Source of the DNA: a virus
Taxonomy: Duplodnaviria; Heunggongvirae; Uroviricota; Caudoviricetes
DNA: 19,694 nucleotides
Direction: 5' to 3' (one strand)
Virus record (IMG/VR): IMGVR_UViG_2703718835_000001
Coordinates: 1 to 19,694 of that record
Shown: one piece after another, positions 1 to 19,694 of the stretch
Position numbering within the stretch: the first letter of the stretch is position 1
Layout of the letters: each line of letters opens with the position of its first letter
Translations under genes and position numbers: made by a program
The notes under the pieces: generated by a model
What the model saw: the letters and a program-made list of their open reading frames with translations, nothing else
What the model was told of the DNA's origin: nothing
Database searches by the model: none

Positions 1-72
1 ATTTATTCAACAAAGCCTTACCTGTCAGGAAATCGCAGAGCTGAAAGGCAAACATTACAACGGAGGTGCTGT

Positions 73-930
73 ATGAGCACCATCCTGAAATGGGCGGGAA
101 ATAAAACCGCCGTAATATCCGAACTGAAAAAACATCTTCCTGCTGGTCCGCGACTAGTTGAACCTTTCGCGGGTTCCTGTGCTGTGATGATGGAGACGGA
201 TTATCCCTGCTATCTGGTTGCGGATATTAATCCTGATTTAATCAACCTCTATAAAAAGGTTGCCGCTGATTGTGAATCGTTTATATCTCGCGCCAAAGTT
301 TTATTTGAGATCGCAAACAGGGAGGTGGCTTATTACAACATAAGGCAGGAGTTTAATTACTCAACTGAAATTACTGATTTCATGAAAGCGGTATATTTCC
401 TGTATCTCAATCGTCACGGTTACCGTGGGTTATGTCGCTATAACAAGAGCGGGCATTTCAACATTCCCTACGGTAATTATAAAAATCCGTATTTCCCTGA
501 AAAAGAAATTCGCGCTTTTGCAGAAAAAGCCCAGCGAGCAACGTTTATCTGCGCCAGCTTTGATGAAACGCTGGCGATGTTGAAGGCGGGGGATGTGGTG
601 TATTGCGATCCGCCTTATGACGGTACGTTTTCCGGCTATCACGCTGACGGCTTTACTGAAGATGACCAGTATCACCTGGCATCCGTTCTTGAACATCGGT
701 CATCAGAAGGACATCCGGTCATTGTTTCTAACAGTGACACATCCTTGATCCGTTCGCTGTATCGCAATTTTACTCACCACTATATCAAGGTAAAACGCAG
801 CATCGGCGTAGCAGCTGGTGAGAGTAAATCAGCAACAGAAATCATTGCTGTTTCCGGGCCGCGCTGCTGGGTGGGATTTGATTATTCGCGTGGCGTGGAT
901 AGTTCTGCCGTGTACGGAGTACGTGCATGA
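73..930 (+). CDS. dam: DNA adenine methyltransferase, Dam family (probable GATC N6-adenine MTase)
   Basis: 285-aa ORF with GGAGGT ribosome-binding site upstream. N-terminus 'LKWAGNK...[11 protein letters not shown]' (AdoMet-binding motif I) and catalytic 'DPPY' motif. Collinear similarity to E. coli Dam throughout, e.g. 'FLYLNR.GY.GLCRYN' and 'VYCDPPY'. Confidence 0.9.
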
Positions 931-3341
931 GCCATGCCGATATGAGCAACTGCTGCGGCTTTAACGAGGCTGCCGCATCGTTCTCATGGAACAGCCCGAA
1001 AAAGGCCATTAACCCTTATCTGGACCCGGCGGAAGTTGCGCCGGTTTCTGCGCTTTCAAACCTGATCACTCTGTACGCTGCCGATAACGAGCAGGAACAA
1101 CTGCGCCGCGAGGCACTGAGTGATCAGGTCTGGGAGCGTTATTTCTTTAATGAATCCCGTGATCCTGTCCAACGCGAAATAGAGCAGGATAAGCTCATTA
1201 GCCGGGCAAAGTTGGCGCATGAGCAGCAGCGTTTTAACCCGGACATGGTCATTCTGGCAGACGTCAGCGCCCAGCCCTCCCATATCAGCAAGCCGCTGAT
1301 GCAACGTATTGAATACTTCAGCAGCCTGGGCAGGCCAAAGGCTTATTCCCGCTATTTACGTGAGACGATTAAGCCATGTCTGGAACGACTGGAGCATGTA
1401 CGCGACAGCCAGCTATCTGCATCTTTTCGTTTTATGGCAAGCCATGAAGGGCTGGACGGCCTGCTGATTCTGCCTGAAATGAGTCAGGATCAGGTGAAAC
1501 GCCTGTCTACTCTTGTCGCTGCGCATATGAGCATGTGCCTTGATGCAGCTTGTGGTGATTTGTATGCCACCGATGACGTTAAGCCAGAAGAAATCCGCAA
1601 GACATGGGAAAAGGTGGCAGCGGAAACCCTGCGTCTGGATGTCATCCCGCCTGCGTTTGAGCAACTCCGTCGGAAAAGAAACCGCCGTAAACCCGTGCCC
1701 TATGAACTCATTCCGGGTTCGCTGGCGCGTATGTTGTGCGCCGACTGGTGGTACCGGAAATTATGGAAAATGCGTTGCGAATGGCGGGAAGAGCAGTTGC
1801 GTGCTGTCTGCCTGGTCAGCAAAAAAGCATCTCCCTATGTCAGCTATGAAGCCGTGATGCATAAACGTGAGCAGCGCCGCAAGTCACTGGAGTTTTTCCG
1901 TTCTCATGAACTGGTGAACGAAGAGGGCGACACGCTGGATATGGAAGACGTGGTAAACGCCAGCAGCAGCAACCCGGCGCACCGCCGCAATGAGATGATG
2001 GCCTGTGTTAAAGGTCTGGAGCTTATCGCGGAAATGCGCGGTGACTGCGCCGTTTTCTACACCATTACCTGTCCGTCACGTTTCCATTCCACGCTCAATA
2101 ACGGCAGACCAAACCCAACCTGGACAAATGCGACGGTAAGACAAAGCAGCGATTATCTGGTCGGCATGTTTGCTGCATTTCGTAAGGCGATGCACAAAGC
2201 CGGGTTGCGCTGGTATGGCGTGCGGGTGGCTGAGCCGCATCATGACGGTACAGTTCACTGGCACCTGTTGTGTTTCATGCGCAAAAAAGACCGCCGCGCC
2301 ATTACTGCATTGTTGCGTAAGTTTGCCATCCGTGAAGACCGCGAGGAACTGGGTAATAACACTGGTCCACGCTTTAAATCTGAGCTGATAAACCCGCGCA
2401 AAGGAACGCCGACAAGCTACATCGCGAAATACATCAGTAAGAACATTGACGGGCGTGGTCTGGCTGGCGAGATCAGCAAGGAAACGGGTAAATCCCTGCG
2501 TGATAACGCTGAATACGTTAATGCCTGGGCGTCTCTGCATCGTGTTCAGCAATTCCGCTTCTTTGGTATTCCGGGACGTCAGGCTTACCGTGAACTTCGC
2601 TTGCTGGCTGGTCAGGCGGCAAGGCAACAGGGTGACAAAAAAGCAGGTGCGCCGGTACTGGATAACCCGCGTCTTGATGCCATTCTGGCTGCTGCTGATG
2701 CTGGTTGTTTTGCCACCTACATCATGAAGCAGGGCGGCGTACTGGTTCCCCGCAAATATCACCTCATCAGAACCGCTTATGAAATCAACGAAGAGCCAAC
2801 CGCCTATGGCGATCACGGTATTCGTATTTATGGCATCTGGTCACCCATTGCAGAGGGCAAGATCTGCACTCATGCAGTGAAGTGGAAAATGGTTCGTAAG
2901 GCCGTTGACGTTCAGGAGGCGGCAGCCGACCAGGGCGCTTGCGCCCCTTGGACTCGTGGCAATAACTGTCCCCTTGCTGAAAATTTGTACCAACAAGGGA
3001 AAGACAAATCAGCTGATGGAGATACCAGAACGGATATCACCCGCATGGATGACAAGGAGTTGCACGATTACCTGCACAGTATGAGCAAAAAAGAGCGCCG
3101 GGAACTGGCAGCAAGGTTACGCCTGGTGAAACCGAAACGGCGTAAAGACTACAAACAGCGAATTACAGATCATCAGCGACAGCAGCTCGTGTATGAACTG
3201 AAGTCCAGGGGATTTGATGGCAGCGAGAAAGAGGTCGATTTACTGCTTCGCGGCGGCAGTATTCCGTCAGGAGCAGGCCTGCGTATCTTCTATCGAAACC
3301 AGCGTTTGCAGGAAGATGATAAGTGGCGAAACCTGTATTAA
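927..3341 (+). CDS. A: Rolling-circle replication initiation endonuclease, P2 gpA family
   Basis: 804-aa ORF. Contains '[13 protein letters not shown]' (HUH-type metal-binding motif) and '[12 protein letters not shown]' (catalytic tyrosine region), as remembered for P2 gpA. The start overlaps the dam stop (ATGA); the true start may be a downstream Met. Confidence 0.88.
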
Positions 3342-3433
3342 TTACGCGGGTTAACAATTCGTGCTCTTAATAATACCAGGCATATCAGGCTGATGAGCGT
3401 AAAAAAACGTTTTACATCAGTAAGATTATTATA

Positions 3434-3453
3434 TACTGTAAATATAAACAGTG
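3434..3453 (+). promoter_or_regulatory. LexA (SOS) box overlapping a sigma70-like promoter
   Basis: TACTGTAAATATAAACAGTG fits CTGT-N8-ACAG with an AT-rich spacer (consensus TACTGTATATATATACAGTA). It overlaps a candidate -10 (TATACT/TACTGT), with a -35-like TTTACA at 3411-3416, about 40 bp upstream of the ATG at 3494. Confidence 0.65.
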
Positions 3454-3493
3454 GTTATGTATACAGTATTGCTTTGGTGTCATAGGAGGAAAG

Positions 3494-3682
3494 ATGCAGG
3501 ACTATTTTTTGGAGTCTTTGAAGCTCCAGCGCATTGATTTTTTTCTTAAGCTTGTAGCGGCCAGTGAGTGTAGTGATGAAGAGAAGGGGCTGGCTCTGCA
3601 GTGGGTTTCTGAATTGACTGATGAACTCATGGCAAAAATCAGAAGCCACGAATACAACCGCTCAATGGATGTCATCAGCTGA
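3494..3682 (+). CDS. Small hypothetical protein (62 aa), first gene of a putative SOS-regulated operon
   Basis: Strong ribosome-binding site AGGAGG 5-6 nt upstream of ATG. Sits immediately downstream of the LexA box. No recognisable motif. Confidence 0.5.
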   Translation: MQDYFLESLKLQRIDFFLKLVAASECSDEEKGLALQWVSELTDELMAKIRSHEYNRSMDVIS

Positions 3683-3692
3683 GGTGACTTTT

Positions 3693-3926
3693 ATGCGCAT
3701 TGAAATAATGATCGATAAAGAGCAGAAGATTAGCCAGTCTACCCTGGACGCCCTTGAATCCGAGCTTTACCGCAATCTGCGCCCCCTGTATCCCAAAACG
3801 GTAATTCGTATCCGTAAAGGTAGCTCTAACGGTGTGGAACTGACCGGACTGCAACTGGACGAAGAAAGGAAGCAAGTGATGAAAATTATGCAGAAGGTGT
3901 GGGAAGACGACAGCTGGCTGCATTAA
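3693..3926 (+). CDS. DinI-like damage-inducible protein (DinI/ImpC/Tum C-terminal family)
   Basis: 77-aa product 'MRIEIMIDKEQ...LDALESELYRNL...YPKTVIRIRKGSSNGVELTGL...ERKQVMKIMQKVWEDDSW' aligns collinearly with E. coli DinI ('MRIEVTIAK...IDALAGELSRRI...EILQETWE', from memory). Ribosome-binding site GAGGTG upstream. The ORF track lists a longer 3621..3926 frame; the internal ATG at 3693 is preferred. Confidence 0.82.
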   Translation: MRIEIMIDKEQKISQSTLDALESELYRNLRPLYPKTVIRIRKGSSNGVELTGLQLDEERKQVMKIMQKVWEDDSWLH

Positions 3927-4026
3927 GAAACGTTGCTGGCGTCTGAACTTGCTTCTGGCGTCAGCAAGGTTGAACACCAAGCCCTTGCGAGGCGTTAGCT
4001 CTGTAGTGCATGTCTATGCCGCATGA

Positions 4027-4098
4027 GATCGCATGATCGTTTGAGGATCGTTTTTGCTAAGGCCCGCCAGAACTGGCGGGCTTTTGCGTAGATCATGC
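4027..4098. repeat. Cluster of four GATC (Dam) sites with a flanking 8-bp inverted repeat
   Basis: GATC at 4027-4030, 4035-4038, 4046-4049 and 4091-4094: four sites in 68 bp, against roughly 0.3 expected by chance. GCATGATC (4031-4038) and GATCATGC (4091-4098) form an inverted repeat flanking the terminator hairpin. Confidence 0.6.
4062..4085 (+). terminator. Rho-independent terminator downstream of the DinI-like gene
   Basis: GC-rich inverted repeat GCCCGCCAG / CTGGCGGGC (4062-4070 / 4073-4081) followed by TTTT (4082-4085). Confidence 0.6.
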
Positions 4099-4130
4099 AG
4101 GTGCATGAAAACCACTACATAAAGCGGGCA

Positions 4131-4156
4131 GGCGTGGCGGGGATACGAGTGCGCGC
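4131..4156. other. Putative cos (cohesive-end) site
   Basis: GGCGTGGCGGGGATACGAG followed by TGCGCGC. The first 13 nt match the remembered 19-nt cohesive ends of P2 (GGCGAGGCGGGGAAAGCAC) and 186 (GGCGTGGCGGGGAAAGCAT). The assignment rests on memory only. Confidence 0.4.
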
Positions 4157-4231
4157 AATACGGTTCGATAAGAATTCACTTCGACTATGTTTTTAGATAA
4201 TCTGGCAATAAAAGGATGAGGAGAATGGCAA

Positions 4232-5473
4232 ATGCAAAGAATAGTTTTTTACTCTTGGCAATCTGATTTAAATGGAAAATGTAATAGAAATTTAATTCAA
4301 GATGCTTTGGTTAGATCTCTAAAAGCAATAAAAAAGGATGAAACAGAAACATTGGAGCCAGTCTTGGATCGTGATACTAATGGTTTAAATGGCTCACCAT
4401 CAATTAGCGAAAGCATTTTTAATAAAATATCACTTTCAGATGTTTTTGTTGCCGATGTTTCTATCATAAATGGAAGGTCTGAGGATAAGAAGACACCTAA
4501 TCCAAATGTTTTGATTGAATTAGGATATGCAGTATCCCAGCTAGGCTGGGATAGAGTAATCATGGTCCAGAATACATTTTATGGTTCTCCAGAAGAACTT
4601 CCTTTTGACTTAAGAGGACGGAGGGTAATTGCATATACTATGGACCCTGATAGTGATTCAAAACCTGAGGTAAGAAGCTTACTGCAAGGGCGACTTGAAA
4701 CTGCATTAAGGGAGTCCTTGAGTGATTCAAGCCAAGGAGCTATTTCTTCAGGTTTAAATGCACCAATATGGTGGGGGGAGTGGTACAAGGACAATCGCAG
4801 AAGTAATTTTGGCAAATTATTTATTCGTGAAACATCGTCAAATGGTTTTCTTTTTGATTTAGTAGTTATGAATGGATCACATTCTGGGAGTATTACAGGA
4901 GAGGCGGTTTTTGTAGCTAGAGATTCAGCTTACGCTAGAATAAAAATACCTGGAAGTAATGAATTTGGCGAGTTGAGTTTTAGGCGCAGCATATTTGATG
5001 GTAAACGATATATTAGGATAAGTGAGACCGTTAGTTGTCAATACTGGCGAGGTATGGGGGCCTTTTTTGATGGTGAGTTTCGTTGTGCAGAGGATCATTT
5101 GTTTTTATTTGGTTTTGCAAATGAAATGGAACTTCAGAGATTATACAACGTTATGGGGCAATATTACTTTGAACTGAAAAAAGTGATGGAGCAAATAGGT
5201 GAGCGCGATAATCTTGATACTTTTGTCGCAAAGGCTTATCAGGGAGGAGTTAGAGGACTTTATACCATTGCGGAAGGTATGGTGATGTTTGGTAGAGAGG
5301 GCGAGATATGGGCTATTTATCTCAATGATGGTGAAATTCGTTATTTCACAAATGTACATAAATGGAAAAAAACTATTCCAAAAACTTTTGAACAGTGGCG
5401 AGAACGATTTCCAGAGATTGAAATAAATTATGGAGGTGATATCTCGACACTTCCTACACAAGAAGATTTATAG
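4232..5473 (+). CDS. Cargo protein (413 aa) with N-terminal nucleoside 2-deoxyribosyltransferase/Rcl-like (SLOG/TIR-like fold) domain and uncharacterised C-terminal domain; candidate antiphage effector
   Basis: Ribosome-binding site AGGAGA 7 nt upstream. Markedly AT-rich against GC-rich phage flanks. The N-terminal 'RIVFYSWQSD' strand and 'NPNVLIELGYAVSQLGWDRVIMV' (Glu96, codon 4517-4519) resemble the catalytic-glutamate region of nucleoside deoxyribosyltransferases ('GMELGYALSQGKYVLLV', from memory). No Walker A motif, so it is not Old-like. The C-terminal ~270 aa have no recognisable motif. Confidence 0.75.
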   Translation: MQRIVFYSWQSDLNGKCNRNLIQDALVRSLKAIKKDETETLEPVLDRDTNGLNGSPSISESIFNKISLSDVFVADVSIINGRSEDKKTPNPNVLIELGYAVSQLGWDRVIMVQNTFYGSPEELPFDLRGRRVIAYTMDPDSDSKPEVRSLLQGRLETALRESLSDSSQGAISSGLNAPIWWGEWYKDNRRSNFGKLFIRETSSNGFLFDLVVMNGSHSGSITGEAVFVARDSAYARIKIPGSNEFGELSFRRSIFDGKRYIRISETVSCQYWRGMGAFFDGEFRCAEDHLFLFGFANEMELQRLYNVMGQYYFELKKVMEQIGERDNLDTFVAKAYQGGVRGLYTIAEGMVMFGREGEIWAIYLNDGEIRYFTNVHKWKKTIPKTFEQWRERFPEIEINYGGDISTLPTQEDL

Positions 5474-5480
5474 ACAAATG

Positions 5481-5513
5481 ACCCGCGATTCGCCAACGCG
5501 GGTTTTGTTTGTT
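5481..5513. terminator. Terminator hairpin between the convergent cargo gene and Q
   Basis: Stem ACCCGCG (5481-5487), loop ATTCGCCAA, stem CGCGGGT (5497-5503), followed by TTTGTTTGTT. It lies between the cargo stop (5473) and the Q stop (5525). It is strongest for the plus-strand transcript. Confidence 0.6.
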
Positions 5514-5524
5514 CAAAAAAATTA

Positions 5525-6568
5525 TTAAGTTATGTTGGGTTCAAATGCATAAGAATCAAAACGAATTACTTGTTCATTGGCCCAGCTATTCAGTTCCTCA
5601 AAACGCTTCTGTAGGGGGATCAGTTCATTTCGAACAAAAACACGGCTGGCCTTCTCCACATCCCCAAACCCCCCGACATTATTCGGCATAATCCCCATCA
5701 TCTGTGGCGGAACACGATGCGCCGCCATCATGTCATCGCGGCTGACGTTCTTGATGTTCAGAAATTCATCTTTCGCCGCGACTTCTGACAACGGGATGAT
5801 CTGAAGCCCGTCTTTTTTGCCGTTAGGCGAGTACATAAACAGGTTGCGGAAGTTGCCCGGGCCTTTGGCGCTTTTCATTGCGTTGCGGAGGTTGTTCACG
5901 TCCTCCTGGTTCTGCGCGGCATCGGTCATGTACATGATGAAGCCTGCATGACTGCCGTTAATGTAATACTTGCGGCGGAACAGCGTGGCGGACTCGTTGA
6001 GCAGGGCTGATGGAATGGCAGAAAGATAACCGGGCAGGCCGTAGATCTCCTGGTTGATATCCGGTTCCATCAGGTGAAAAATGCTGCCTTTCGTGAACTG
6101 ATACGGCTGGGTTGTCATACCGTATTGCACAAACCAGTAGGTATCCAGGTCTAACCCGCGTCGGGTGTATTTTGCCAGAGCAGGCTCAAGGGCGATAACT
6201 TCACCGAAGCGGTTCGTGCGTTTCTCCAGGTAGGCGTTACCAAATACCAGATAGTCCTGCACAAAACGTGAAAAAGCCTGCTGGCTGAGCAGCGGGTGAG
6301 GGATGTAGGTGCTGGTCAGAATGTTGCACTTTACTGCAATCGGTGAGCTGTGATGCACGGCGGCGCGAAAGGTGCGCGCCAGCCCGTCGAAACTCACTGG
6401 CGGCTCATACCAACGATCTGTCTGTACGCATTCCACATAGTCCAGCAGTTCGCGGCGGTCCAGAACAGGAACGGGATCACCGAAGCTGAATGCTTCGGCT
6501 GAAGTTTGGTTTTTATGCTGGATCTGATTCGTCGCCGCAGCGCGGTTTTTCTTACTCTTTCCCATCAA
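5525..6568 (-). CDS. Q: Portal protein, P2 gpQ family
   Basis: 347-aa ORF, convergent with the upstream cargo gene and overlapping the P stop by 4 bp. Position and size match P2 Q (about 344 aa). Confidence 0.88.
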   Translation of the reverse strand: MMGKSKKNRAAATNQIQHKNQTSAEAFSFGDPVPVLDRRELLDYVECVQTDRWYEPPVSFDGLARTFRAAVHHSSPIAVKCNILTSTYIPHPLLSQQAFSRFVQDYLVFGNAYLEKRTNRFGEVIALEPALAKYTRRGLDLDTYWFVQYGMTTQPYQFTKGSIFHLMEPDINQEIYGLPGYLSAIPSALLNESATLFRRKYYINGSHAGFIMYMTDAAQNQEDVNNLRNAMKSAKGPGNFRNLFMYSPNGKKDGLQIIPLSEVAAKDEFLNIKNVSRDDMMAAHRVPPQMMGIMPNNVGGFGDVEKASRVFVRNELIPLQKRFEELNSWANEQVIRFDSYAFEPNIT

Positions 6569-8331
6569 AAAATCTCCACAATATTGCTGGTATTGGCGGA
6601 CTCGCCCTGCAGCGGTTCGTTAAACAGTGCGTGCATGGTTGCCCACGCCAGATCGGCGTGGCTGGCTTCTTCGCTGCGGCTGGCTTCATAGGTCGGGCGG
6701 TTGCCGCTGGCGGTGGTGGCGCGACGGATTGCCATAAATGACTGCGCAATGTCGGTGTGTCCGGCGTCAAACTCAAGACGGCGGTGGCTGATAATGTCGT
6801 AAGCCTTGAGTACCAGGGCGTTTTTAACGTTGGGGTTGTAGACAAACTCCCGGACGGCAGGAAAAAACGCTTTCACGTTCTCGTAAACCCCGTGACCAAC
6901 GCCGGTTGAGTCGATGCCGATATAGGTCACGTTGTACTGTTCGGTCAGTTTTTTGATGGCGTCAGCCTGGGCGCGAAAGTCCATCCCGCGCCACTGGTGA
7001 CGCTCAAGAATGCGAAACTTACCGCCCGGCACGGCTGGCGGTGCCAGCACCACGCATCCGGCACTGTCGCCGTTCTGCGTACCTTTTGCCGGGTCATAAC
7101 CGATCCACACTTCGCGCCAGCCAAATGGGCGCAGCGCCAGTGCATGAAAGTCGGTCCAGACTTCCCAGCTGTCCACCATGCACGCCTGCAGCTCGCTGAG
7201 CGGGAACACGGACGCGAGATCGTCCACAAACTCGCACATCAGCAGGTTCTGGTATTCGTCCGGGCTGTACTCCATGCGCAACTGGTCAAGGTCGAACAGG
7301 TTACAGCCGCCGCGCACTGCATCTTCCACGGTGACTATCTGGCGGTATTGCCCGTCTGCGCACAGCAGGCCGGGGGCCAGATTGCTGTGGGACAGGTCGA
7401 TGTCCACCTTGTCGGCTTTGTTGCGCCCACGGTTGAACAGCGCACCGGACCAGAACGGATAAGCACTGTGTGTCAGGCTGGATGGCGTGGAAAAATAGGT
7501 TTGTCGCCATTTTTTGTGAATAGCCATACCGGAAGCCACTTTGCGCAGCTCCTGGAATTTCGGTATCCAGAAATATTCATCCAGATACAGGTTGCCGTGG
7601 TAACTCTGAGCCGTGCGGGCATTGGTGCCGAGGAAGTAAAGCGTGGCCCCGTTAGGAAGCACCATCGGATCGCCTTTCAGCTCCACCTCGACTTCTTTGG
7701 CGAAGTCGATGATGTACTGCTTAAAGACGTGAGCCTGTGCCTTACTGGCAGAAAGGAAAATCTGGTTACGTCCGGTAAGCAGGGCGTCAATCAGGGCTTC
7801 ACGGGCAAAGTAAAAGGTCGCGCCGATCTGGCGTGACTTCAGCAGATTACGGATGCGGTTGGTTTTTCCTGCTTCCCACCAGTGGCGCTGGTAGTTGAAC
7901 ATGGAGGAATGGAAGATTTCTTCCAGCTTCTCAATCTGTTCATCGGTGAAAACATTCTTTTCAGGCTGACGGCGCGGGCCTTTGTTGCGGTTGGCGACGT
8001 TAGGGTTTAAATCGGCTTCGTTGCCGCCATTGTTAAACTTGCCGATCCGCGCGTGGCGCTCCGACTGGCGCGACAGCAGATCAATTTCTTTGAAATCTTT
8101 CCCTTCTTTGTGCTCCTTCATAATGAGCTGGCAGTAACGTGCGGCGGTGGTGAGCTGCATCTGATCCAGCGGCCCATAGTCACCCCACTTGTCGCGTTTT
8201 TTCCAGCTGTGAACGGTTGCAACTTTCTCGCCCAGCATTTCAGCAATGCGGGCTACGCGGTATCCCTGAAAGTACAGCAGCATGGCCTGCCGACGGGGAT
8301 CGAGATCTGCGGGTGTCAGTGTGGTGTTCAT
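6565..8331 (-). CDS. P: Terminase large (ATPase) subunit, P2 gpP family
   Basis: 588-aa ORF (P2 gpP is about 590 aa), divergent from O. The start codon overlaps the Q start region, as in P2. Confidence 0.88.
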   Translation of the reverse strand: MNTTLTPADLDPRRQAMLLYFQGYRVARIAEMLGEKVATVHSWKKRDKWGDYGPLDQMQLTTAARYCQLIMKEHKEGKDFKEIDLLSRQSERHARIGKFNNGGNEADLNPNVANRNKGPRRQPEKNVFTDEQIEKLEEIFHSSMFNYQRHWWEAGKTNRIRNLLKSRQIGATFYFAREALIDALLTGRNQIFLSASKAQAHVFKQYIIDFAKEVEVELKGDPMVLPNGATLYFLGTNARTAQSYHGNLYLDEYFWIPKFQELRKVASGMAIHKKWRQTYFSTPSSLTHSAYPFWSGALFNRGRNKADKVDIDLSHSNLAPGLLCADGQYRQIVTVEDAVRGGCNLFDLDQLRMEYSPDEYQNLLMCEFVDDLASVFPLSELQACMVDSWEVWTDFHALALRPFGWREVWIGYDPAKGTQNGDSAGCVVLAPPAVPGGKFRILERHQWRGMDFRAQADAIKKLTEQYNVTYIGIDSTGVGHGVYENVKAFFPAVREFVYNPNVKNALVLKAYDIISHRRLEFDAGHTDIAQSFMAIRRATTASGNRPTYEASRSEEASHADLAWATMHALFNEPLQGESANTSNIVEIF

Positions 8332-8377
8332 GGCACAAACCTACAGCCTTGAATGAAGGCTTTCCCCGCCTGCGGTT

Positions 8378-8395
8378 TGTGTGGTTGTCGGTACA
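8378..8395. promoter_or_regulatory. Late-promoter activator (Ogr/Delta-type) binding dyad TGT-N12-ACA in the P/O divergent region
   Basis: TGTGTGGTTGTCGGTACA in the 142-bp P-O intergenic region. The geometry (centre about 88 bp upstream of the O ATG) fits an activator site near -55 for the O promoter. Confidence 0.45.
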
Positions 8396-8473
8396 AATAC
8401 CGCGCATTGTTTCACTGCCCCCATCACCGCAACCATAAGGCTCCAGTAAGTTTTTTCTAACGGAGCACGGCTC

Positions 8474-9307
8474 ATGACAGTGAAAGCAAAGCGTTTTCGC
8501 ATCGGGGTGGAAGGTGCCACTACCGACGGACGCGAAATCCAGCGTGAATGGCTGGAACAGATGGCAGCCAGCTACAATCCGGCGGTGTACACCGCGCTGA
8601 TTAACCTTGAGCACATCAAGTCTTATCTGCCGGACAGCACCTTTAACCGCTACGGCAAGGTGACGGCGCTGTTTGCTGAAGAAATCACGGAAGGTCCGCT
8701 GGCAGGCAAGATGGCACTGTATGCCGACGTTGAGCCAACGGAGTCCCTGGTGGAACTGGTGAAAAAAGGCCAGAAATTATTCACCTCTATGGAAGTCAGC
8801 CCGAAGTTTGCTGATACGGGCAAAGCCTACCTGGTCGGCCTGGCTGCCACTGATGATCCCGCCAGTCTGGGTACGGAAATGCTGACATTCAGCGCCAGTG
8901 CAGCCCATAACCCGCTGGCAAACCGCAAGCAGAATCCCGCCAATCTTTTTACCGCTGCAGAGGAAACGGTGATCGAACTGGAAGAAATCCAGGAGGACAA
9001 GCCGTCCCTGTTTGCCCGCGTCACGGCGCTGTTCACCAAAAAAGAGCAGTCCGATGATGCCCGGTTCTCTGATGTGCATAAGGCCGTGGAACTGGTCGCC
9101 ACGGAGCAGCAAAACCTGAGCACGCGCACCGAAAAATCCCTGTCTGAGCAGGAAGAACGCCTGTCTGAGATGGAGACTGCCCTGCAGGCACAACAAGCCG
9201 CCTTTAACGAACTGGTGGATAAGCTGAGTCATGAAGACAGCCGCCAGGACTACCGCCAGCGTGCAACAGGCGGTAACGCCCCCGCTGACACTCTGACCAA
9301 TTGCTGA
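8474..9307 (+). CDS. O: Capsid scaffolding protein, P2 gpO family
   Basis: 277-aa ORF (P2 gpO is about 284 aa) in the position between P and N. The acidic C-terminal half is typical of scaffold proteins. Confidence 0.85.
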   Translation: MTVKAKRFRIGVEGATTDGREIQREWLEQMAASYNPAVYTALINLEHIKSYLPDSTFNRYGKVTALFAEEITEGPLAGKMALYADVEPTESLVELVKKGQKLFTSMEVSPKFADTGKAYLVGLAATDDPASLGTEMLTFSASAAHNPLANRKQNPANLFTAAEETVIELEEIQEDKPSLFARVTALFTKKEQSDDARFSDVHKAVELVATEQQNLSTRTEKSLSEQEERLSEMETALQAQQAAFNELVDKLSHEDSRQDYRQRATGGNAPADTLTNC

Positions 9308-9323
9308 TGGAGCACAAAACCCG

Positions 9324-10382
9324 ATGAAGAAGAATACCCGCTTTGCTTTTAACGCTTACCTGCAGCAGCTGGCGCGTCTGAACGGTGTGGCAGTTGAAGA
9401 ACTGTCCAGCAAGTTCACCGTCGAACCGTCCGTGCAGCAGACGCTGGAAGACCAGATCCAGCAGTCCGCCGCTTTCCTGACACTGATTAACGTCACGCCA
9501 GTGACTGAGCAGTCCGGTCAGTTGCTGGGGCTGGGTGTTGGCAGCACCATTGCCGGAACCACTGATACCACCGCGAAAGAGCGTGAACCTGTCGATCCGA
9601 CGCTGATGGTCGATGTGGAATATAAATGCGAGCAGACCAACTTTGACACGGTGCTGACCTACGCGAAGCTGGACCTGTGGGCGAAGTTTCAGGATTTCCA
9701 GGTGCGTATCCGTGACGCCATCGTGAAACGTCAGGCACTGGACCGCATCATGATCGGCTTTAACGGCGTGAAGCGCGCGAAAACCTCTAACCGTAGCGAA
9801 AACCCGCTGCTGCAGGATGTGAACAAAGGCTGGTTGCAGAAAATCCGTGAGGATGCACCGGATCACGTCATGGGCAGCACCACCACGGGCGGTGAAACCA
9901 CACCGGGTACGGTGAAAGTCGGGAAAGGTGGCGAATATGCCAACCTGGACGCCGTGGTGATGGATGCCGTCAATGAGCTTATCGACGTGGTCTACCAGGA
10001 CGATGACGATCTGGTGGTGATTTGCGGGCGTGAACTGCTGTCTGACAAGTATTTCCCGCTGGTCAACAAAGAGCAGGAGAACAGTGAAAAACTGGCTGCC
10101 GATATGATCATCAGTCAGAAACGCATGGGGGGCTTGCAGGCCGTGCGTGCGCCATTCTTCCCGCCGAATGCGCTGCTGATCACCCGTCTGGATAACCTGT
10201 CCATCTACTGGCAGGAAGACACCCGCCGCCGTTCAGTTATCGACAACCCGAAACGTGACCGGATTGAAAATTTTGAATCCGTTAACGAAGCCTATGTGGT
10301 TGAAGACTACCGCTGCGCTGCACTGGTGGAAAACATCCAGATTGGCGATTTCAGCGCCGCCGCAGCAGAAACCGGAGCGTAA
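9324..10382 (+). CDS. N: Major capsid protein, P2 gpN family
   Basis: 352-aa ORF. Long collinear similarity to remembered P2 gpN, e.g. 'TRFAFNAYL', 'KFTVEPSV', 'LDLWAKFQDFQVRIRDAIVKRQ', 'VGKGGEYANLDA', 'ISQKRMG'. Confidence 0.92.
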   Translation: MKKNTRFAFNAYLQQLARLNGVAVEELSSKFTVEPSVQQTLEDQIQQSAAFLTLINVTPVTEQSGQLLGLGVGSTIAGTTDTTAKEREPVDPTLMVDVEYKCEQTNFDTVLTYAKLDLWAKFQDFQVRIRDAIVKRQALDRIMIGFNGVKRAKTSNRSENPLLQDVNKGWLQKIREDAPDHVMGSTTTGGETTPGTVKVGKGGEYANLDAVVMDAVNELIDVVYQDDDDLVVICGRELLSDKYFPLVNKEQENSEKLAADMIISQKRMGGLQAVRAPFFPPNALLITRLDNLSIYWQEDTRRRSVIDNPKRDRIENFESVNEAYVVEDYRCAALVENIQIGDFSAAAAETGA

Positions 10383-10385
10383 TCC

Positions 10386-11036
10386 ATGAGCCTGAGTCCC
10401 GCACGGCAGCATCGCCTGCGCGTTCAGGCTGAACAGGCCGCCCGCGAGGGCGGCAGCGTTCGCCACGCGTCGGGCTATGACCTGATGCTGCTGCAACTGG
10501 CGGAAGACCGACGCCGTCTCAAGGGCGTTCAGTCCACGGTGAAAAAAGCGGAAATAAAGGTGGAGCTGCTGCCGAAATATGCCGCCTGGGCGGAGGGCGT
10601 CCTGGCTGCCGGAGGCGCTCAACAGGATGACGTGCTGATGTACGTGATGCTGTGGCGCATTGATGCCGGAGATTATGCCGGGGCGCTGGAGATTGGGCGT
10701 CATGCCCTGCGTCATGGCTGGGTGATGCCGCTGGGTAACCGCAACGTGCAGACCGTGCTGGCAGAGGAAATGGCAGATGCAGCCCAGAGCGCAATGCTTG
10801 CCGCCACCGGCTTTGATGCCGATCTGTTGCTGCAGACGCTGGAGCTGACAGACGGTCTGGATATGCCGGACCAGTCACGGGCGCGTCTGCATAAAGCGAT
10901 TGGCGCTGTCCTGAGTGAAAGCAATCCGGCTTCCGCCCTTAATCATATCAACCATGCGTTACAGCTCGATCCCCGCTGTGGCGTGAAAAAAGACAAACAG
11001 CAGCTGGAGCGCAGACTGCGCAATGACAGCCGCTGA
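10386..11036 (+). CDS. M: Terminase small (endonuclease) subunit, P2 gpM family
   Basis: 216-aa ORF directly after N. Motifs 'RVQAEQAAREGG..RHA', 'QDDVLMYVMLWRID.GDYAGALEIGR' and 'TLELT...DMPD' match remembered P2 gpM. Confidence 0.85.
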   Translation: MSLSPARQHRLRVQAEQAAREGGSVRHASGYDLMLLQLAEDRRRLKGVQSTVKKAEIKVELLPKYAAWAEGVLAAGGAQQDDVLMYVMLWRIDAGDYAGALEIGRHALRHGWVMPLGNRNVQTVLAEEMADAAQSAMLAATGFDADLLLQTLELTDGLDMPDQSRARLHKAIGAVLSESNPASALNHINHALQLDPRCGVKKDKQQLERRLRNDSR

Positions 11037-11131
11037 CAGAACGTGCCCCCGCGCACGGGCGGCACGGGGTGGCGAAAGGCACTGCCACATCAAAACCCCG
11101 TCCACCGCCCTTTATTTCAGGAGAAAGCAGC

Positions 11132-11596
11132 ATGAAGTTTGTTGCGCCAGAACAGGCACCGGAACAGGCGGAAATCATCAGAAATACGCCGTTCTGGCCT
11201 GATGTGGACCTGTCGGAGTTTCGCAGTGTCATGCGCACTGACGGCACAGTGACGCAGCCGCGTTTAAAGCAGGTTGCGCTGTCGGCAATTTCGGAGGTCA
11301 ACGCAGAGCTGTATGAGTTTCGCAGACGTCAGCAGATGCTGGGATATGCCTCGCTGGCAGAGGTTCCGGCGGAACAGCTGGAGGGCAAAAGTGAGCGCAT
11401 TCATCACTATTTCAACGCGGTTTACTGCTGGGCACGCGCCATGCTCAACGAGCGTTATCAGGACTATGACGCCACGGCATCCGGTGTGAAGCGGGGCGAG
11501 GAACTGGCGGAAGCAAGCGGTGATTTGTGGCGTGACGCCCGCTGGGCCATCAGCCGGGTGCAGGATGCGCCGCACTGCACAGTGGAGCTTATCTGA
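11132..11596 (+). CDS. L: Head completion/stabilisation protein, P2 gpL family
   Basis: The ORF track begins at 11069, but the internal ATG at 11132 has an AGGAGA ribosome-binding site and gives 'MKFVAPE...', collinear with gpL ('ELYE.R', 'LWRD.RWA..R.Q'). Confidence 0.82.
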   Translation: MKFVAPEQAPEQAEIIRNTPFWPDVDLSEFRSVMRTDGTVTQPRLKQVALSAISEVNAELYEFRRRQQMLGYASLAEVPAEQLEGKSERIHHYFNAVYCWARAMLNERYQDYDATASGVKRGEELAEASGDLWRDARWAISRVQDAPHCTVELI

Positions 11597-11799
11597 TGAA
11601 AGTGCGTGCGCATCAGTATGACACGGTGGACGCGCTTTGCTGGCGTCATTACGGGCGCACGCAGGGTGTCACGGAGCAGGTACTGAAGGCAAATCCGGGG
11701 CTTGCCGAATTTGGCCCCTTTTTACCTCACGGGCTGCAGGTGGAGCTGCCGGACATTCCGACCACCACCACCGTGCAGACCGTCCAGCTATGGGACTGA
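11596..11799 (+). CDS. X: Tail protein X, P2 gpX family
   Basis: 67 aa. 'YGRTQGVTEQVLKANPGLAEFGPFLPHG..VELPD' closely matches remembered P2 gpX ('YGRTEGVVETVLAANPGLAELGAVLPHGTAVELPD'). Confidence 0.88.
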   Translation: MKVRAHQYDTVDALCWRHYGRTQGVTEQVLKANPGLAEFGPFLPHGLQVELPDIPTTTTVQTVQLWD

Positions 11800-11802
11800 A
11801 TT

Positions 11803-12018
11803 ATGACGCTTGAGCGAATCAGCGCCTTTATCACGTATTGCATCGCCGTTGTGCTGGCCTGGCTGGGCGATTTGTCCATCAAGGATGCCTCAACGCTGGG
11901 CGGCCTGATGATCGGTGTGCTGATGCTGGCTATCAACTGGTACTACAAACACAAAGCCTACCAGCTTCTGCGCGACGGGCAGATCTCGCGGGAGGACTAT
12001 GAATCCATCAATCGTTAA
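11803..12018 (+). CDS. Holin (two predicted transmembrane segments; possible pinholin)
   Basis: 71 aa with two hydrophobic stretches ('ISAFITYCIAVVLAWLG', 'LGGLMIGVLMLAINWYY') and a charged C-terminus. Immediately upstream of, and overlapping, the endolysin. Confidence 0.7.
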   Translation: MTLERISAFITYCIAVVLAWLGDLSIKDASTLGGLMIGVLMLAINWYYKHKAYQLLRDGQISREDYESINR

Positions 12019-12514
12019 ACGCTGCCTTGTCGGGGCCGTGCTGGCTATTGCTGCCACGCTGCCGGGGTTTCAGCAACTTCACACCTCCGTGGAGGGGCTG
12101 AAACTGATTGCCGATTACGAAGGCTGTCGTCTGCAGCCGTATCAGTGCAGCGCGGGTGTCTGGACCGACGGCATTGGTAATACGTCGGGCGTCATTCCCG
12201 GCAAAACTATTACGGAACGACAGGCAGCAGAAGGACTGATCTCCAACGTGCTACGTGTGGAGCGGGCGCTGGAAAGGTGTGTGAAGCAACAGCCGCCGCA
12301 GAAGGTGTATGACGCTACGGTGTCGTTTGCCTTCAACGTGGGGACGGGCAATGCCTGTAGTTCCACGCTGGTGAAATTGCTCAATCAGCGGCGCTGGGCG
12401 GATGCGTGCCGACAGTTGCCGCGCTGGGTTTATGTGAAAGGTGTTTTTAATCAGGGGCTGGATAACCGCCGTGCGCGGGAGATGGCCTGGTGCCTTAAAG
12501 GAGCTGGACTATGA
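11999..12514 (+). CDS. K: Endolysin, lysozyme family with N-terminal signal-anchor-release (SAR) domain
   Basis: 171 aa. N-terminal hydrophobic 'LVGAVLAIAATLPGF' followed by the lysozyme motif 'EGLKLIADYEGCRLQPYQCSAGVWTDGIGNT' (catalytic E-8aa-D-5aa-T type). Confidence 0.85.
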   Translation: MNPSIVKRCLVGAVLAIAATLPGFQQLHTSVEGLKLIADYEGCRLQPYQCSAGVWTDGIGNTSGVIPGKTITERQAAEGLISNVLRVERALERCVKQQPPQKVYDATVSFAFNVGTGNACSSTLVKLLNQRRWADACRQLPRWVYVKGVFNQGLDNRRAREMAWCLKGAGL

Positions 12515-12939
12515 CACGTGCGCTGGCGGTAGTGGCGGCGCTGGCACTCGTTGCGCTGGGCTGGCAGTCGTGGCGGCTTAACAGCGCCAGCCACACCATC
12601 GAAACGCAGCGCGCGGCGCTGAAAAGTAAAGCGCACGAACTAACGAAGAAAAATAGCCAGCTGATCAGTCTGTCCATTCTGGCTGAAACCAACAATCGGG
12701 AGCAGGCGCGGCTCTACGCCGAAGCAGAACAGACCAGTGCACTGCTGAGACAACGACAACGCCGGATTGAGGAACTGAAACGTGAGAACGAGGATTTACG
12801 CCGCTGGGCTGATACTCCTTTGCCTGCTGACATTATCCGGCTGCGGAAACGTCCGGCATTCACCGGAGGTGCAGCTTACCGTCAGTGGTTGTCCGCGAGT
12901 GACGCCGTGTCGGCTGGATCAGGCAACGCCGCGCACTAA
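12511..12939 (+). CDS. lysB: i-spanin (LysB/Rz-like)
   Basis: 142 aa. N-terminal transmembrane segment 'ALAVVAALALVALGW', then a coiled-coil-like charged region. Start overlaps the endolysin stop. Confidence 0.8.
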   Translation: MTRALAVVAALALVALGWQSWRLNSASHTIETQRAALKSKAHELTKKNSQLISLSILAETNNREQARLYAEAEQTSALLRQRQRRIEELKRENEDLRRWADTPLPADIIRLRKRPAFTGGAAYRQWLSASDAVSAGSGNAAH

Positions 12940-13072
12940 CGGTGATCTGAACGCGTTGCTGGATGAAACGGAGGCCGCCTGGGCGGTCTGTGCAGACAAA
13001 GTGGACATGATTATTGCGTGTCAGGAGCGAAACAGTGAACAAACCACAATCCCTGCGCCACGCCCTCAATAA
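12782..13072 (+). CDS. lysC: o-spanin lipoprotein (LysC/Rz1-like), overlapping the lysB 3' end in another frame
   Basis: 96 aa. Lipoprotein signal with lipobox 'LTLSGC', Pro-rich mature region. Overlapping out-of-frame with lysB, as in P2. Confidence 0.7.
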   Translation: MRTRIYAAGLILLCLLTLSGCGNVRHSPEVQLTVSGCPRVTPCRLDQATPRTNGDLNALLDETEAAWAVCADKVDMIIACQERNSEQTTIPAPRPQ

Positions 13073-13466
13073 AGCGGTGCCTTATGTCCGCAATACCCCG
13101 GACAAACTGCATCTGTTTGTGGATAACGGTTCGCTGGTTGCTACGGGGGCCAGCTCCATGTCATGGGAGTACCGTTACACCCTGAACGTGGTGATTGAGG
13201 ATTTCAGTGGCGACCAGAATCTGCTGATGGCCCCGGTTTTGCTGTGGCTGCGTGATAACCAGCCCGATGCCATCAATAACCCGGCGTTATGGGAAAAACT
13301 ATTCACCTTTGAGGTGGATATTCTGCGCAACGATGTCTGTGATATCAGCCTTAACCTGCAACTGACGGAACGTGTGCTGGTCAGCACTGACGGCACTGTG
13401 TCCAGCGTTGAAGCTGTAGCGGAACCCGATGAACCTGAAGAAATGTGGACGGTGAAACGTGGCTGA
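13035..13466 (+). CDS. R: Tail completion protein, P2 gpR family
   Basis: The ORF track begins at 13014. A GTG at 13035 with an AGGAG ribosome-binding site 7 nt upstream is preferred. 'PDKLHLFVDNGSL' is typical of gpR. Start is uncertain. Confidence 0.78.
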   Translation: MNKPQSLRHALNKAVPYVRNTPDKLHLFVDNGSLVATGASSMSWEYRYTLNVVIEDFSGDQNLLMAPVLLWLRDNQPDAINNPALWEKLFTFEVDILRNDVCDISLNLQLTERVLVSTDGTVSSVEAVAEPDEPEEMWTVKRG

Positions 13467-13905
13467 ACTGCAGAAGGTGGACGACTGGCTGAGTGCCTTG
13501 CTGGCGAATCTGGAGCCAGCCGCAAGAAGCCGCATGATGCGCCAGCTGGCGCAGGAACTGCGCCGGACACAGCAGCAGAATATCAGGATGCAGCGCAACC
13601 CTGACGGCAGCAGCTATGAACCGCGACGGGTAACAGCACGCAGTAAAAAAGGCCGTATCAAACGTCAGATGTTTGCAAAGCTGCGCACCACAAAATACCT
13701 GAAAACTGCCGCCAGCGCCGATTCTGCCAGCGTGCAGTTTGAAGGTAAGGTGCAGCGTATTGCCCGCGTTCACCATTACGGCCTGCGTGATCGCGTCAGT
13801 CGTAAAGGGCCGGAGATCCGTTACGCAGAGCGTCGCCTGCTGGGTGTAAATGATGATGTTGAGACAATGACCCGCGACATGATTCTGCAATGGCTGGCGG
13901 GGTGA
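13459..13905 (+). CDS. S: Tail completion protein, P2 gpS family
   Basis: 148 aa with a GTG start overlapping the R stop. Position and size match gpS. Confidence 0.8.
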   Translation: MAELQKVDDWLSALLANLEPAARSRMMRQLAQELRRTQQQNIRMQRNPDGSSYEPRRVTARSKKGRIKRQMFAKLRTTKYLKTAASADSASVQFEGKVQRIARVHHYGLRDRVSRKGPEIRYAERRLLGVNDDVETMTRDMILQWLAG

Positions 13906-13909
13906 TCTT

Positions 13910-13927
13910 TGTATCAGCACTGATACA
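13910..13927 (+). promoter_or_regulatory. Late-promoter activator dyad TGT-N12-ACA upstream of V
   Basis: TGTATCAGCACTGATACA, part of the near-perfect palindrome TTGTATCAG-CA-CTGATACAA (13909-13928), in the S-V intergenic region where P2 has its V late promoter. Confidence 0.5.
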
Positions 13928-13973
13928 AGTTGCAGCACTGCCGCCTTTCTTCTCCTGATGGCAACCTTTCTCT

Positions 13974-14552
13974 ATGAACGCACAATTAACCGAAATCATG
14001 CGCCTTATCACCAACCTGATCCGCACTGGGGTAGTCACCGAAGTGGACAGGGCAAACTGGCTGTGTCGGGTGAAAACTGGCGACCTCGAAACCAACTGGA
14101 TTAACTGGCTGACACTGCGCGCGGGCAAATCGCGCACCTGGTGGAAACCGTCTGTGGGCGAGCAGGTTGTGCTGTTCAGCCTGGGTGGCGATCTGGAAAC
14201 CGCGTTTGCCCTGCCTGCGGTCTACTCAAACCAGTTTCCACCACCTTCAGATTCTGAGGACGGCAACGTGGTTGAGTACCCGGACGGTGGCTGGTTTGAA
14301 TACGAACCCGCCACCGGGCGCTGGTATGTCAGGGGCATCAAATCAATGGTCATTGAAGCCGCTGACAACATCACCATGAAAACCAGTGAGTTTGTACTGG
14401 AGGCTGACCGCACGCGCATTAACAGCGAAGTGGTGATCAATGGTGGCGTTACCCAGGGCGGCGGAGCGATGAGTTCTAACGGGATCGTGGTTGATGCGCA
14501 TCAGCATACTGGCGTCCTGAAAGGCGGCGACACAACCGGAGGCCCGGTATGA
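13974..14552 (+). CDS. V: Baseplate spike/hub protein, P2 gpV family
   Basis: 192 aa. 'IRTGVVTEVD', 'RAGKSRTWWKPSVGEQVVLFSLGGDLETAFALPAVYS' and 'SSNGIVVDAHQHTG' match remembered P2 gpV. Confidence 0.88.
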   Translation: MNAQLTEIMRLITNLIRTGVVTEVDRANWLCRVKTGDLETNWINWLTLRAGKSRTWWKPSVGEQVVLFSLGGDLETAFALPAVYSNQFPPPSDSEDGNVVEYPDGGWFEYEPATGRWYVRGIKSMVIEAADNITMKTSEFVLEADRTRINSEVVINGGVTQGGGAMSSNGIVVDAHQHTGVLKGGDTTGGPV

Positions 14553-14908
14553 CGCTTTATAGCGGGATGAACAATACCAGCGGTAAAGCCATTACTGATA
14601 TTGACCATCTGCGCCAGTCGGTGCGGGACATTCTGCTGACGCCGCAGGGTAGCCGCATTGCTCGTCGGGAATATGGTTCCCTGCTGTCGGCACTGATAGA
14701 TCAGCCACAAAATCCGGCGTTACGCCTGCAGGTTATGTCGGCTGTGTATGTGGCACTGAGTCGCTGGGAGCCACGGCTGACGCTGGATTCCATCACTATT
14801 AACAGCAATTTTGACGGTTCAATGGTGGTGGCGCTGAACGGGCGGCGTAATAACGGTGTGCCTGTTTCCCTTTCCGTATCAACAGGAGCAGAGAATGGCA
14901 GTGATTGA
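14549..14908 (+). CDS. W: Baseplate protein, P2 gpW (gp25-like) family
   Basis: 119 aa. ATGA overlap with the V stop. 'LRQSVRDILLTPQGSRIARREYGS' is typical of gp25/gpW. Confidence 0.85.
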   Translation: MTLYSGMNNTSGKAITDIDHLRQSVRDILLTPQGSRIARREYGSLLSALIDQPQNPALRLQVMSAVYVALSRWEPRLTLDSITINSNFDGSMVVALNGRRNNGVPVSLSVSTGAENGSD

Positions 14909-15803
14909 CCTTTCGCAGTTGCCTGCGCCGCAGATTGTGGATGTGCCGGACTTTGAGACGTTGCTTGCCGAACGCAAGGCAGAATTTGTGGCGCTTCATC
15001 CGAAAGATGAGCAGGAAGCAGTGAGCCGCACACTGGAACTGGAATCTGAACCCGTCACCAAATTGCTGCAGGAGAACGCTTATCGTGAGTTGCTTCTGCG
15101 CCAGCGCATTAACGAAGCCGCGCAGGCGGTGATGGCGGCTTATGCCATAGGGAGCGATCTGGACCAGCTCGCTGCCAATTACAACGTGAAACGCCTGACG
15201 GTGACGCCTGCTGATAATGACGCTGTGCCGCCCGTCGCGGCTGTGATGGAAAGTGATGAAGCGTTACGCCTGCGTGTGCCTGCGGCTTTTGAAGGGCTTT
15301 CGGTTGCGGGGCCAACTGCCGCTTATGAATTTCATGCCCGAAGCGCCGACGGTCGGGTGGCGGATGCCAGTGCAACCAGTCCGGCACCTGCAGAGGTGGT
15401 GCTGACTGTCCTGAGCCGCGAAGGCGATGGAACAGCAGAAAAAGACCTGCTGGACGTGGTGGAAAAAGCTCTGAACAGTGAGAACGTCCGCCCAGTGGCT
15501 GACCGTCTTACGGTTCGCAGCGCAGAAATCATCCCGTACCGGGTGGAAGCCACTATTTTTCTCTATCCGGGACCGGAAGCAGAGCCGGTAATGGCAGCGG
15601 CAAAAGCCAGCCTGCAGAAGTACATCGCCAGTCAGACGCGTCTTGGTCGGGATATTCGCCGTAGCGCCATCTTTGCCGCCCTGCATGTTGAGGGTGTGCA
15701 GCGTGTGGAGCTGGCTTCTCCTCTGGCGGATATGGTCCTGAACAAAACACAGGCGGCATCATGTACGCAGTGGAGCGTAACCAACGGAGGAACGGATGAA
15801 TAG
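14895..15803 (+). CDS. J: Baseplate wedge protein, P2 gpJ family
   Basis: The ORF track begins at 14856. The ATG at 14895 with an AGGAG ribosome-binding site gives 302 aa, the size of P2 gpJ. Confidence 0.85.
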   Translation: MAVIDLSQLPAPQIVDVPDFETLLAERKAEFVALHPKDEQEAVSRTLELESEPVTKLLQENAYRELLLRQRINEAAQAVMAAYAIGSDLDQLAANYNVKRLTVTPADNDAVPPVAAVMESDEALRLRVPAAFEGLSVAGPTAAYEFHARSADGRVADASATSPAPAEVVLTVLSREGDGTAEKDLLDVVEKALNSENVRPVADRLTVRSAEIIPYRVEATIFLYPGPEAEPVMAAAKASLQKYIASQTRLGRDIRRSAIFAALHVEGVQRVELASPLADMVLNKTQAASCTQWSVTNGGTDE

Positions 15804-18482: not shown

Positions 18483-18492
18483 ATTACTTCAT

Positions 18493-19575: not shown

Positions 19576-19694
19576 TATGTACCTCAATTTTTTTGTGTTA
19601 ATGGTACACACTCAGGAGTCATGAGTCGATAGTATCATGGCGTCGGGACAGGGGTTTACTACTCTCATCTTAAAGCAACCTTTGAAAATGGTCA

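Follow-up and report, generated by a model that had tools for sequence, protein, structure and literature searches.

Hydrolysis of nicotinamide adenine dinucleotide (NAD+) and aborted infection are known for TIR-STING, TIR-SAVED, PycTIR, SpbK and bSEFIR, which carry TIR-type domains. A protein resembling them is encoded in a stretch of 19,694 nucleotides (IMG/VR record IMGVR_UViG_2703718835_000001, positions 1 to 19,694; hereafter the window), and this 19.7-kb window is a P2/186-like prophage. The gene lies at 4232-5473, between the cohesive-end site cos and the portal gene Q, and its product of 413 aa consists of an N-terminal TIR domain followed by a predicted β-barrel and an α/β subdomain. 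With a probability of roughly 0.6, the protein is interpreted as a cytosolic single-chain anti-phage immune protein and cargo of a P2-like prophage, in which a TIR NADase effector joined to a C-terminal sensor would act by abortive infection.

Stand-alone TIR proteins were explicitly excluded from the systematic survey of bacterial TIR immunity (Yirmiya et al. 2025). In Escherichia coli, 32 of 64 TIR clusters were tested and nine new systems were found (Wang et al. 2024). SpbK, TIR-V and TIR-IX recognise the phage portal protein, and TIR-VI recognises a tail fibre. In the P2 hotspot between gpA and gpQ, the described cargo comprises old/tin, the Rst systems and the AC1 system 2TM+1TM+TIR; WP_023277642 and WP_053289770 appear as 'TIR-like' in the P2 hotspot table (Table S5A), neither being among the systems tested (Rousset et al. 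2022).

The window protein is 99% identical to RefSeq WP_023277642.1, and its RefSeq name is 'TIR domain-containing protein'. It is thus catalogued already, and the first-pass annotation, which was made from the DNA sequence alone and proposed a candidate undescribed antiphage effector, was too strong in this respect. No paper that names WP_023277642 in its main text was found, and no phenotype for the protein was found in the searchable literature, a search that did not extend to the list of tested clusters in Wang et al. 2024. The family is of considerable size, with thousands of proteins and at least 528 loci in species-representative genomes, and it gains in importance because stand-alone TIRs were omitted from the latest survey and only every second TIR cluster of E. 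coli has been tested.

The N-terminal TIR domain

The gene and the parts of its product are located as follows.

4232-5473, plus strand: open reading frame (ORF) of the TIR, barrel and α/β protein, 413 aa, with an ATG start
4232-4726, plus strand: TIR domain, aa 1-165, of a divergent 'FYSWQSD' clade of PF10137, from profile and structure matches
4517-4519, plus strand: codon GAA of the putative catalytic Glu96, in NPNVLIELG
4766-5089, plus strand: predicted eight-stranded up-and-down β-barrel, lipocalin/avidin-like, aa ~179-286, with WWGxW at its start and the motif NGSHxGxIxGxA
5090-5437, plus strand: α/β subdomain, aa ~287-402, from predicted secondary structure

The frame at 4232-5473 is not a chance ORF, because 4473 database proteins match its product at E≤1e-3, many of them over their full length with 45-72% identity. 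The first-pass annotation had likened the N-terminal part to nucleoside 2-deoxyribosyltransferases (NDT) and Rcl, from the strings RIVFYSWQSD and NPNVLIELGYAVSQLGWDRVIMV and from Glu96; both strings are present in the translation, and the codon at 4517-4519 is indeed that of Glu. In profile searches, PF10137 (CAP12/Pycsar effector TIR, Pfam) matches aa 54-135 (E=6.7e-6) and passes with 26.5 bits against a cut-off of 24.7. The PADLOC models of CBASS TIR effectors match at 1.8e-9 (aa 78-151) and 4.5e-8, the PycTIR model at 0.0045, and the NCBIfam Cap12 equivalog at E=0.013 (aa 73-155, 14.8 bits against a cut-off of 450). PF05014, the NDT family, matches aa 29-103 including Glu96 with E=0.13, and fails with 12.8 bits against a cut-off of 28.8. 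PF08937 (ThsB-type TIR) gives no Pfam match at E≤10. A DUF4062/NIR TIR-like NADase was ruled out by the same lack of a Pfam match at E≤10, and an Old-like ATPase, dismissed already in the first-pass annotation, by a sequence without a P-loop.

An AlphaFold model of the full protein, built on 39 homologues, has a mean predicted local distance difference test score (pLDDT) of 84. Its best Foldseek matches in the PDB are the TIR-STING structures 7un8 and 9lmq/9lmr (E 4e-5 to 6e-4, probability 1.00). The NDT structures 8qc0, 8pqr and 8pqs follow (E 5e-4 to 3e-3) and then generic flavodoxin-like proteins; 8qc0, the first NDT, is at rank 11, preceded by the TIR-STING chains and by two EF-Tu matches that superpose poorly. 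Glu96 is invariant in 39 full-length homologues, lies inside every TIR hidden Markov model (HMM) match, and is at least 95% conserved among 77 members of the TIR clade, whatever C-terminal domain they carry. The motifs FYSWQSD, DRDT and LPFDLRGRR are invariant or nearly so in the clade. FYSWQSD in the first strand is a TIR pattern, and NDTs carry a glycine-rich, nucleotide-binding motif there.

On these profile and model comparisons, the N-terminal domain is predicted to be a TIR of the Cap12/Pycsar type rather than an NDT/Rcl domain. The expected substrate would be NAD+, and not (deoxy)nucleosides or nucleotides as first proposed, because the domain is assigned to TIR. It is very unlikely that the domain is instead an NDT/Rcl-like N-glycosidase acting on (deoxy)nucleosides or nucleotides. 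The two families have in common a flavodoxin-like fold, a catalytic Glu in E-[LI]-G and N-glycosidic chemistry, the E-L-G-Y-A motif resembles the NDT/Rcl catalytic motif, and both the PF05014 match around Glu96 and the NDT structures among the Foldseek matches would fit such an enzyme. However, the similarity to NDT/Rcl (DNPH1) by HMM and structure is weak, the TIR models score better and pass their threshold, TIR-STING structures stand above NDT structures, and the first strand has the TIR pattern with no glycine-rich NDT motif. What stands of the earlier assignment is a domain of Rossmann-like, N-glycosidase type, in which Glu96 proves invariant; the family changes to TIR. Attempts to align Glu96 with a solved TIR at the level of single residues gave no result, and Glu96 is therefore treated as the putative catalytic Glu.

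The 'FYSWQSD' clade keeps ~50% identity across Cyanobacteria, Chloroflexota, the candidate phyla radiation, Planctomycetes and other phyla. At least 12 unrelated C-terminal domains are borne by this clade, which is carried by plasmids too, with other partner domains.

The C-terminal barrel plus α/β module

The C-terminal ~270 aa had been called unrecognisable. Modelled alone, aa 172-413 give a pLDDT of 93.8 and a predicted template modelling score of 0.87, with a lipocalin-like barrel followed by the α/β subdomain, and together these form a widespread module that has no name. The module has no Pfam family and no match to a PADLOC model, a Foldseek search of its model against the PDB gave no E value lower than 0.019, and no paper on it was found in the literature. 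D329, R341 and E348, all in the α/β subdomain, are its most conserved polar residues among 118 module homologues; the residues conserved superfamily-wide are mostly structural (G, W, F). A Cys pair is present in most non-TIR members and missing from the window protein.

HMMER, run exhaustively on 1.84 billion representative proteins, found the module in 432 clusters. It stands behind PF10137-type TIR domains, as in the window protein, but also behind TIR_2 (PF13676) domains, whose N-terminal sequences are visibly of two or more different types, and behind TPR repeats. Its fusions to PF10137-type and to TIR_2-type TIR domains are separate events. A highly conserved TIR clade is joined to a confidently folded, sensor-like module that lacks a name, a solved structure and an entry in the searched defence databases; the module, which occurs both in TIR proteins and in secreted proteins, is the most original element of the locus.

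The reading as a sensor joined to an effector, in keeping with the earlier suggestion that the C-terminal part might be a sensor, which remains plausible, is favoured because a conserved effector domain is fused to interchangeable C-terminal domains, as is typical of single-chain immune proteins, because one C-terminal module has been captured by different TIR families, and because the genes reside in hotspots next to cos, both in P2-like phages and in P4-like satellites, and beside other defence genes. The domain identities and folds, the invariant residues, the organisation as one gene and the location as variable cargo in a hotspot are results of the analysis; the NADase chemistry, trigger, oligomerisation and protective phenotype proposed below are inferred. 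The barrel plus α/β module would be the sensor or regulator that keeps the enzyme off in the absence of an infection cue, and this cue, a phage protein or a small ligand, would be bound by the module. Binding would lead to oligomerisation, bringing the TIR domains together, and the TIR with Glu96 would then cut the nicotinamide-ribose N-glycosidic bond of NAD+, as in Cap12, PycTIR and TIR-STING. The collapse of NAD+ would arrest growth of the infected cell, and such abortive infection would guard the lysogen population and the prophage.

A more specific idea is tentative and rather doubtful, namely that the module is an unnamed ligand- or protein-recognition domain, that the protein represents a new class of single-chain TIR receptors, and that the trigger is perhaps an envelope or lysis cue. 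Such a cue might be a muralytic enzyme of the phage or a fragment of the cell wall, and not the capsid or portal protein. Secreted and lipoprotein-type carriers of the module often have a lysozyme-inhibitor-like LprI domain. Identification of the binding partner would give the TIR immune repertoire a new recognition domain, and the use of the module in secreted proteins a reason.

The cos-adjacent slot and homologous loci

The gene stands in a block between cos and Q, with the following features around it.

4131-4149: cos, 19-nt cohesive-end site, GGCGTGGCGGGGATACGAG, aligning with the annotated cosL of P2 and 186
4159-5524: variable cargo block, from cos to the stop codon of Q, delimited by a break in similarity and by rarity among E. 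coli genomes
4213-4223, plus strand: ribosome-binding site AGGATGAGGAG, read from the sequence, with GGAG at 4220-4223, 8 nt ahead of the ATG
5481-5512, plus strand: hairpin resembling an intrinsic terminator (ACCCGCG...CGCGGGT), with a T-run after it, where the TIR gene and Q converge

The partners in the cos alignment are positions 1-19 of P2 (NC_001895) and of 186 (NC_001317), and the downstream TGCGCGC aligns as well. The TIR ORF is on the Q side of cos, because cos is at 4131-4149; its position between cos and Q, as first described, is confirmed by this alignment. From cos to the stop codon of Q there are 1375 bp in the window, versus 170-190 bp in P2 and 186, and the ORF fills the gap. 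Likeness to other P2-like phages stops at ~4158 and returns at ~5557-5607 within Q. Only 3 complete genomes of E. coli out of 5426 have the TIR gene, whereas the flank is found in 1226. A conserved core gene of P2-like phages, the alternative named in the first-pass annotation, was ruled out by the same 3 of 5426, and the claim of a single-gene variable cargo at the cos-proximal P2 hotspot is borne out: the ORF lies beside cos between gpA and gpQ, and occupancy is variable. The earlier placement of the gene where P2 carries tin/old is right for the gpA-gpQ hotspot, but not for the side, as old and tin of P2 are presumably on the A side of cos and the window gene is on the Q side. The low GC content and expression signals first noted for the ORF are also present, with a GC of 0.34-0.40 over the ORF versus 0.53-0.58 in gpA and Q/P, and with the ribosome-binding site and terminator listed above. 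A scan for σ70 promoters found no site upstream of the ORF; a weak candidate was seen by eye at ~4175-4201 (TTCACT, 15 nt, GATAAT).

The A side of cos, from the DinI-like gene to cos, is empty in the window (equivalent to 3927-4130). In sibling loci it holds nothing, a 239-aa HNH endonuclease, a cassette of 297+87+138 aa or a DUF8087 gene, and the first protein of the cassette matches the PADLOC candidate PDC-S42 (8.8e-44). The A side varies independently of the TIR gene, and therefore P2-like phages have two cargo slots flanking cos; the locus reveals that these are independently variable, one on either side of the site. In Escherichia phage 500465-1 (NC_049342.1, 5215-5643), a different and short 'TIR domain-containing protein' sits in this slot, with DinI/cos on one side and the portal gene on the other. 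It is 142 aa long as annotated, in a frameshift-ridden record, and tblastn with the window protein gave no match to it.

The cluster at 90% identity comprises 104 sequences, and their sources are E. coli, Shigella sonnei, Enterobacter cloacae and Klebsiella pneumoniae. When each species was represented by a single genome, scanning gave at least 528 loci that hold a relative. Among the best 80 of these, 29 have the full architecture and are from Proteobacteria, Bacteroidota, Acidobacteriota and Deinococcales, while 32 pair the TIR clade (~50% identity) with another C-terminus of ~310 aa in proteins of ~475 aa. Between this ~310-aa C-terminus and the C-terminal portion of the bSEFIR model of PADLOC there is a weak match (E=1.8e-5). 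The remainder of the best 80 have about ten further C-termini.

In Pantoea, a homologue of 72% identity has a P2-like portal gene as its neighbour, and P4-like satellites of Klebsiella and Pectobacterium carry homologues of 60-62% identity in their cos-int hotspot. The homologue in Nitrosospira stands beside AAA_15/AAA_21-DUF3696 genes and that in Paraburkholderia amid mobile-element genes. No conserved neighbour was found across 11 contexts. In P4-like satellites (L009 7268-7972 and L109 6263-6967), a conserved, multi-pass-membrane-like protein of 234 aa is encoded 28-33 bp upstream of the TIR homologue; the two copies are 77% identical and have no Pfam or PADLOC match. This protein may act as an optional partner or effector; alternatively, it may be cargo in its own right. 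In Aeromonas veronii (L110 5662-6796), a bona fide ThsB gene (PADLOC 5e-60) is directly upstream of a TIR-barrel homologue and is itself preceded by an unannotated gene of 212 aa. The region of this ThsB gene may be a Thoeris-like pair with an unidentified effector.

The TIR might instead be a signal generator of the ThsB or AC1 '2TM+1TM+TIR' kind, making a messenger derived from ADP-ribose for a separately encoded effector, with the 234-aa membrane protein of the satellites or a host gene as candidate effectors. The membrane protein encoded ahead of the homologue in two satellites of P4 type, the use of a TIR with membrane proteins by the P2-like phage AC1 in this very hotspot, and the ThsB gene adjoining the Aeromonas homologue all agree with this alternative. 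Nevertheless it is unlikely, for both the window and the sibling loci point the other way. The identical cos 19-mer is exactly 101 nt ahead of the TIR start codon in 10 of 10 sibling E. coli loci checked, and Q is immediately downstream in every sibling locus read; because cos is 101 nt upstream and Q directly downstream, neither the window nor the sibling loci have a partner gene. Furthermore, no partner is conserved across phyla, and the affinity by HMM is to the NAD-depleting Cap12/PycTIR and not to ThsB, given the lack of a PF08937 match.

Several observations weigh against the reading as a single-chain immune protein. The margin of PF10137 over its cut-off is small and many homologues score below the cut-off, the matches being precomputed for many, but not all, of them. 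When PDB sequences were searched, neither the family profile nor the N-terminal domain turned up anything beyond chance matches (E>0.3), and hhalign of the TIR clade with TIR_2 domains gave no usable alignment (probability 2%). The C-terminal module is not dedicated to immunity, because secreted proteins and lipoproteins contain it as well, often downstream of a signal peptide or lipobox, and with LprI (PF07007), SLH repeats or Big_5. With the 234-aa membrane protein in P4-like satellites, a two-component mode is possible for some members. Several homologues stand alone in housekeeping neighbourhoods, and tblastn against 50,697 deposited phage genomes found no homologue.

The last of these results also bears on a role outside defence, whether in counter-defence or host manipulation (a sponge or hydrolase of immune nucleotides), as a Tcp-like TIR virulence factor or as a lysogenic-conversion enzyme. 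Such a role is highly improbable. The protein has no signal peptide, and full-length homologues are mostly outside phages, with free-living environmental Nitrosospira, Methylomonas, Flavobacterium and Acidobacteriota among the carriers, and none was found in the deposited phage genomes. A pure sponge is further disfavoured because the putative catalytic Glu is invariant.

Other features of the window are as follows.

73-930: Dam methylase (MethyltransfD12) gene
927-3341: gpA, replication endonuclease gene
ending at 3926: 62-aa ORF, then DinI-like gene
4056-4087, plus strand: hairpin followed by a T-run, 3' of the DinI-like gene (inverted repeat I3, 15-nt arms, 87% complementary, then TTTTGC), which closes the upstream transcription unit
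5525-6568, minus strand: portal gene Q
6565-8331, minus strand: terminase gene P
beyond P: scaffold, capsid, small terminase and tail genes

The Dam-type methylase gene has a GC of 0.42-0.47 (window 1-800) versus 0.53 in the adjacent gpA, and may likewise be an acquired module. A further cargo gene of low GC (0.33-0.38 versus ~0.55) lies at 18493-19611 on the minus strand, directly after the tail-fibre assembly gene (18087-18482), in the slot of Z/fun in P2. Its product of 372 aa matches glycosyltransferase family 9 (heptosyltransferase, PF01075, E=3.3e-7) and has no match in PADLOC. It may be a lysogenic-conversion gene that modifies lipopolysaccharide, or a receptor-masking gene.

Comparison with known systems

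With Cap12, TIR-STING, TIR-SAVED and PycTIR, the window protein has the TIR subfamily, by HMM, and the fold in common. It also resembles them as a single chain of a TIR and a domain that would sense a ligand, and cleavage of NAD+ on oligomerisation would be expected here too. In contrast to CBASS and Pycsar, the locus has no CD-NTase or PycC cyclase, its neighbours being cos and Q, and the protein has no SAVED, STING or cNMP-binding domain in Pfam, so that both the adjacent cyclase and the sensor domain of such systems are missing. The CBASS and Pycsar TIR-effector models of PADLOC match via their C-terminal parts, whereas the order is reversed in the window protein, where the TIR is N-terminal and the putative sensor is the unrelated barrel plus α/β module. 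Thoeris ThsB differs in its TIR family (PF08937), and no ThsA or other effector gene is present in the window or conserved across contexts.

Location beside cos between gpA and gpQ, and variable occupancy, are shared with the cargo of the P2 hotspot (Rousset et al. 2022). Unlike AC1 2TM+1TM+TIR, the window TIR gene is single and has no membrane partners. TIR-V and TIR-IX have C-termini that superimpose and N-termini that differ (Wang et al. 2024), and the window protein shows the opposite, with the conserved TIR at the N-terminus. PADLOC models of bSEFIR and of other single-gene TIR systems do not match the window protein, although the sibling architecture of its TIR clade has the C-terminus with weak similarity to bSEFIR. 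Like SpbK, bSEFIR and TIR-V/VI/IX, the locus is one stand-alone gene on a mobile element or in a defence island, and its product combines a TIR-type domain with a non-catalytic domain.

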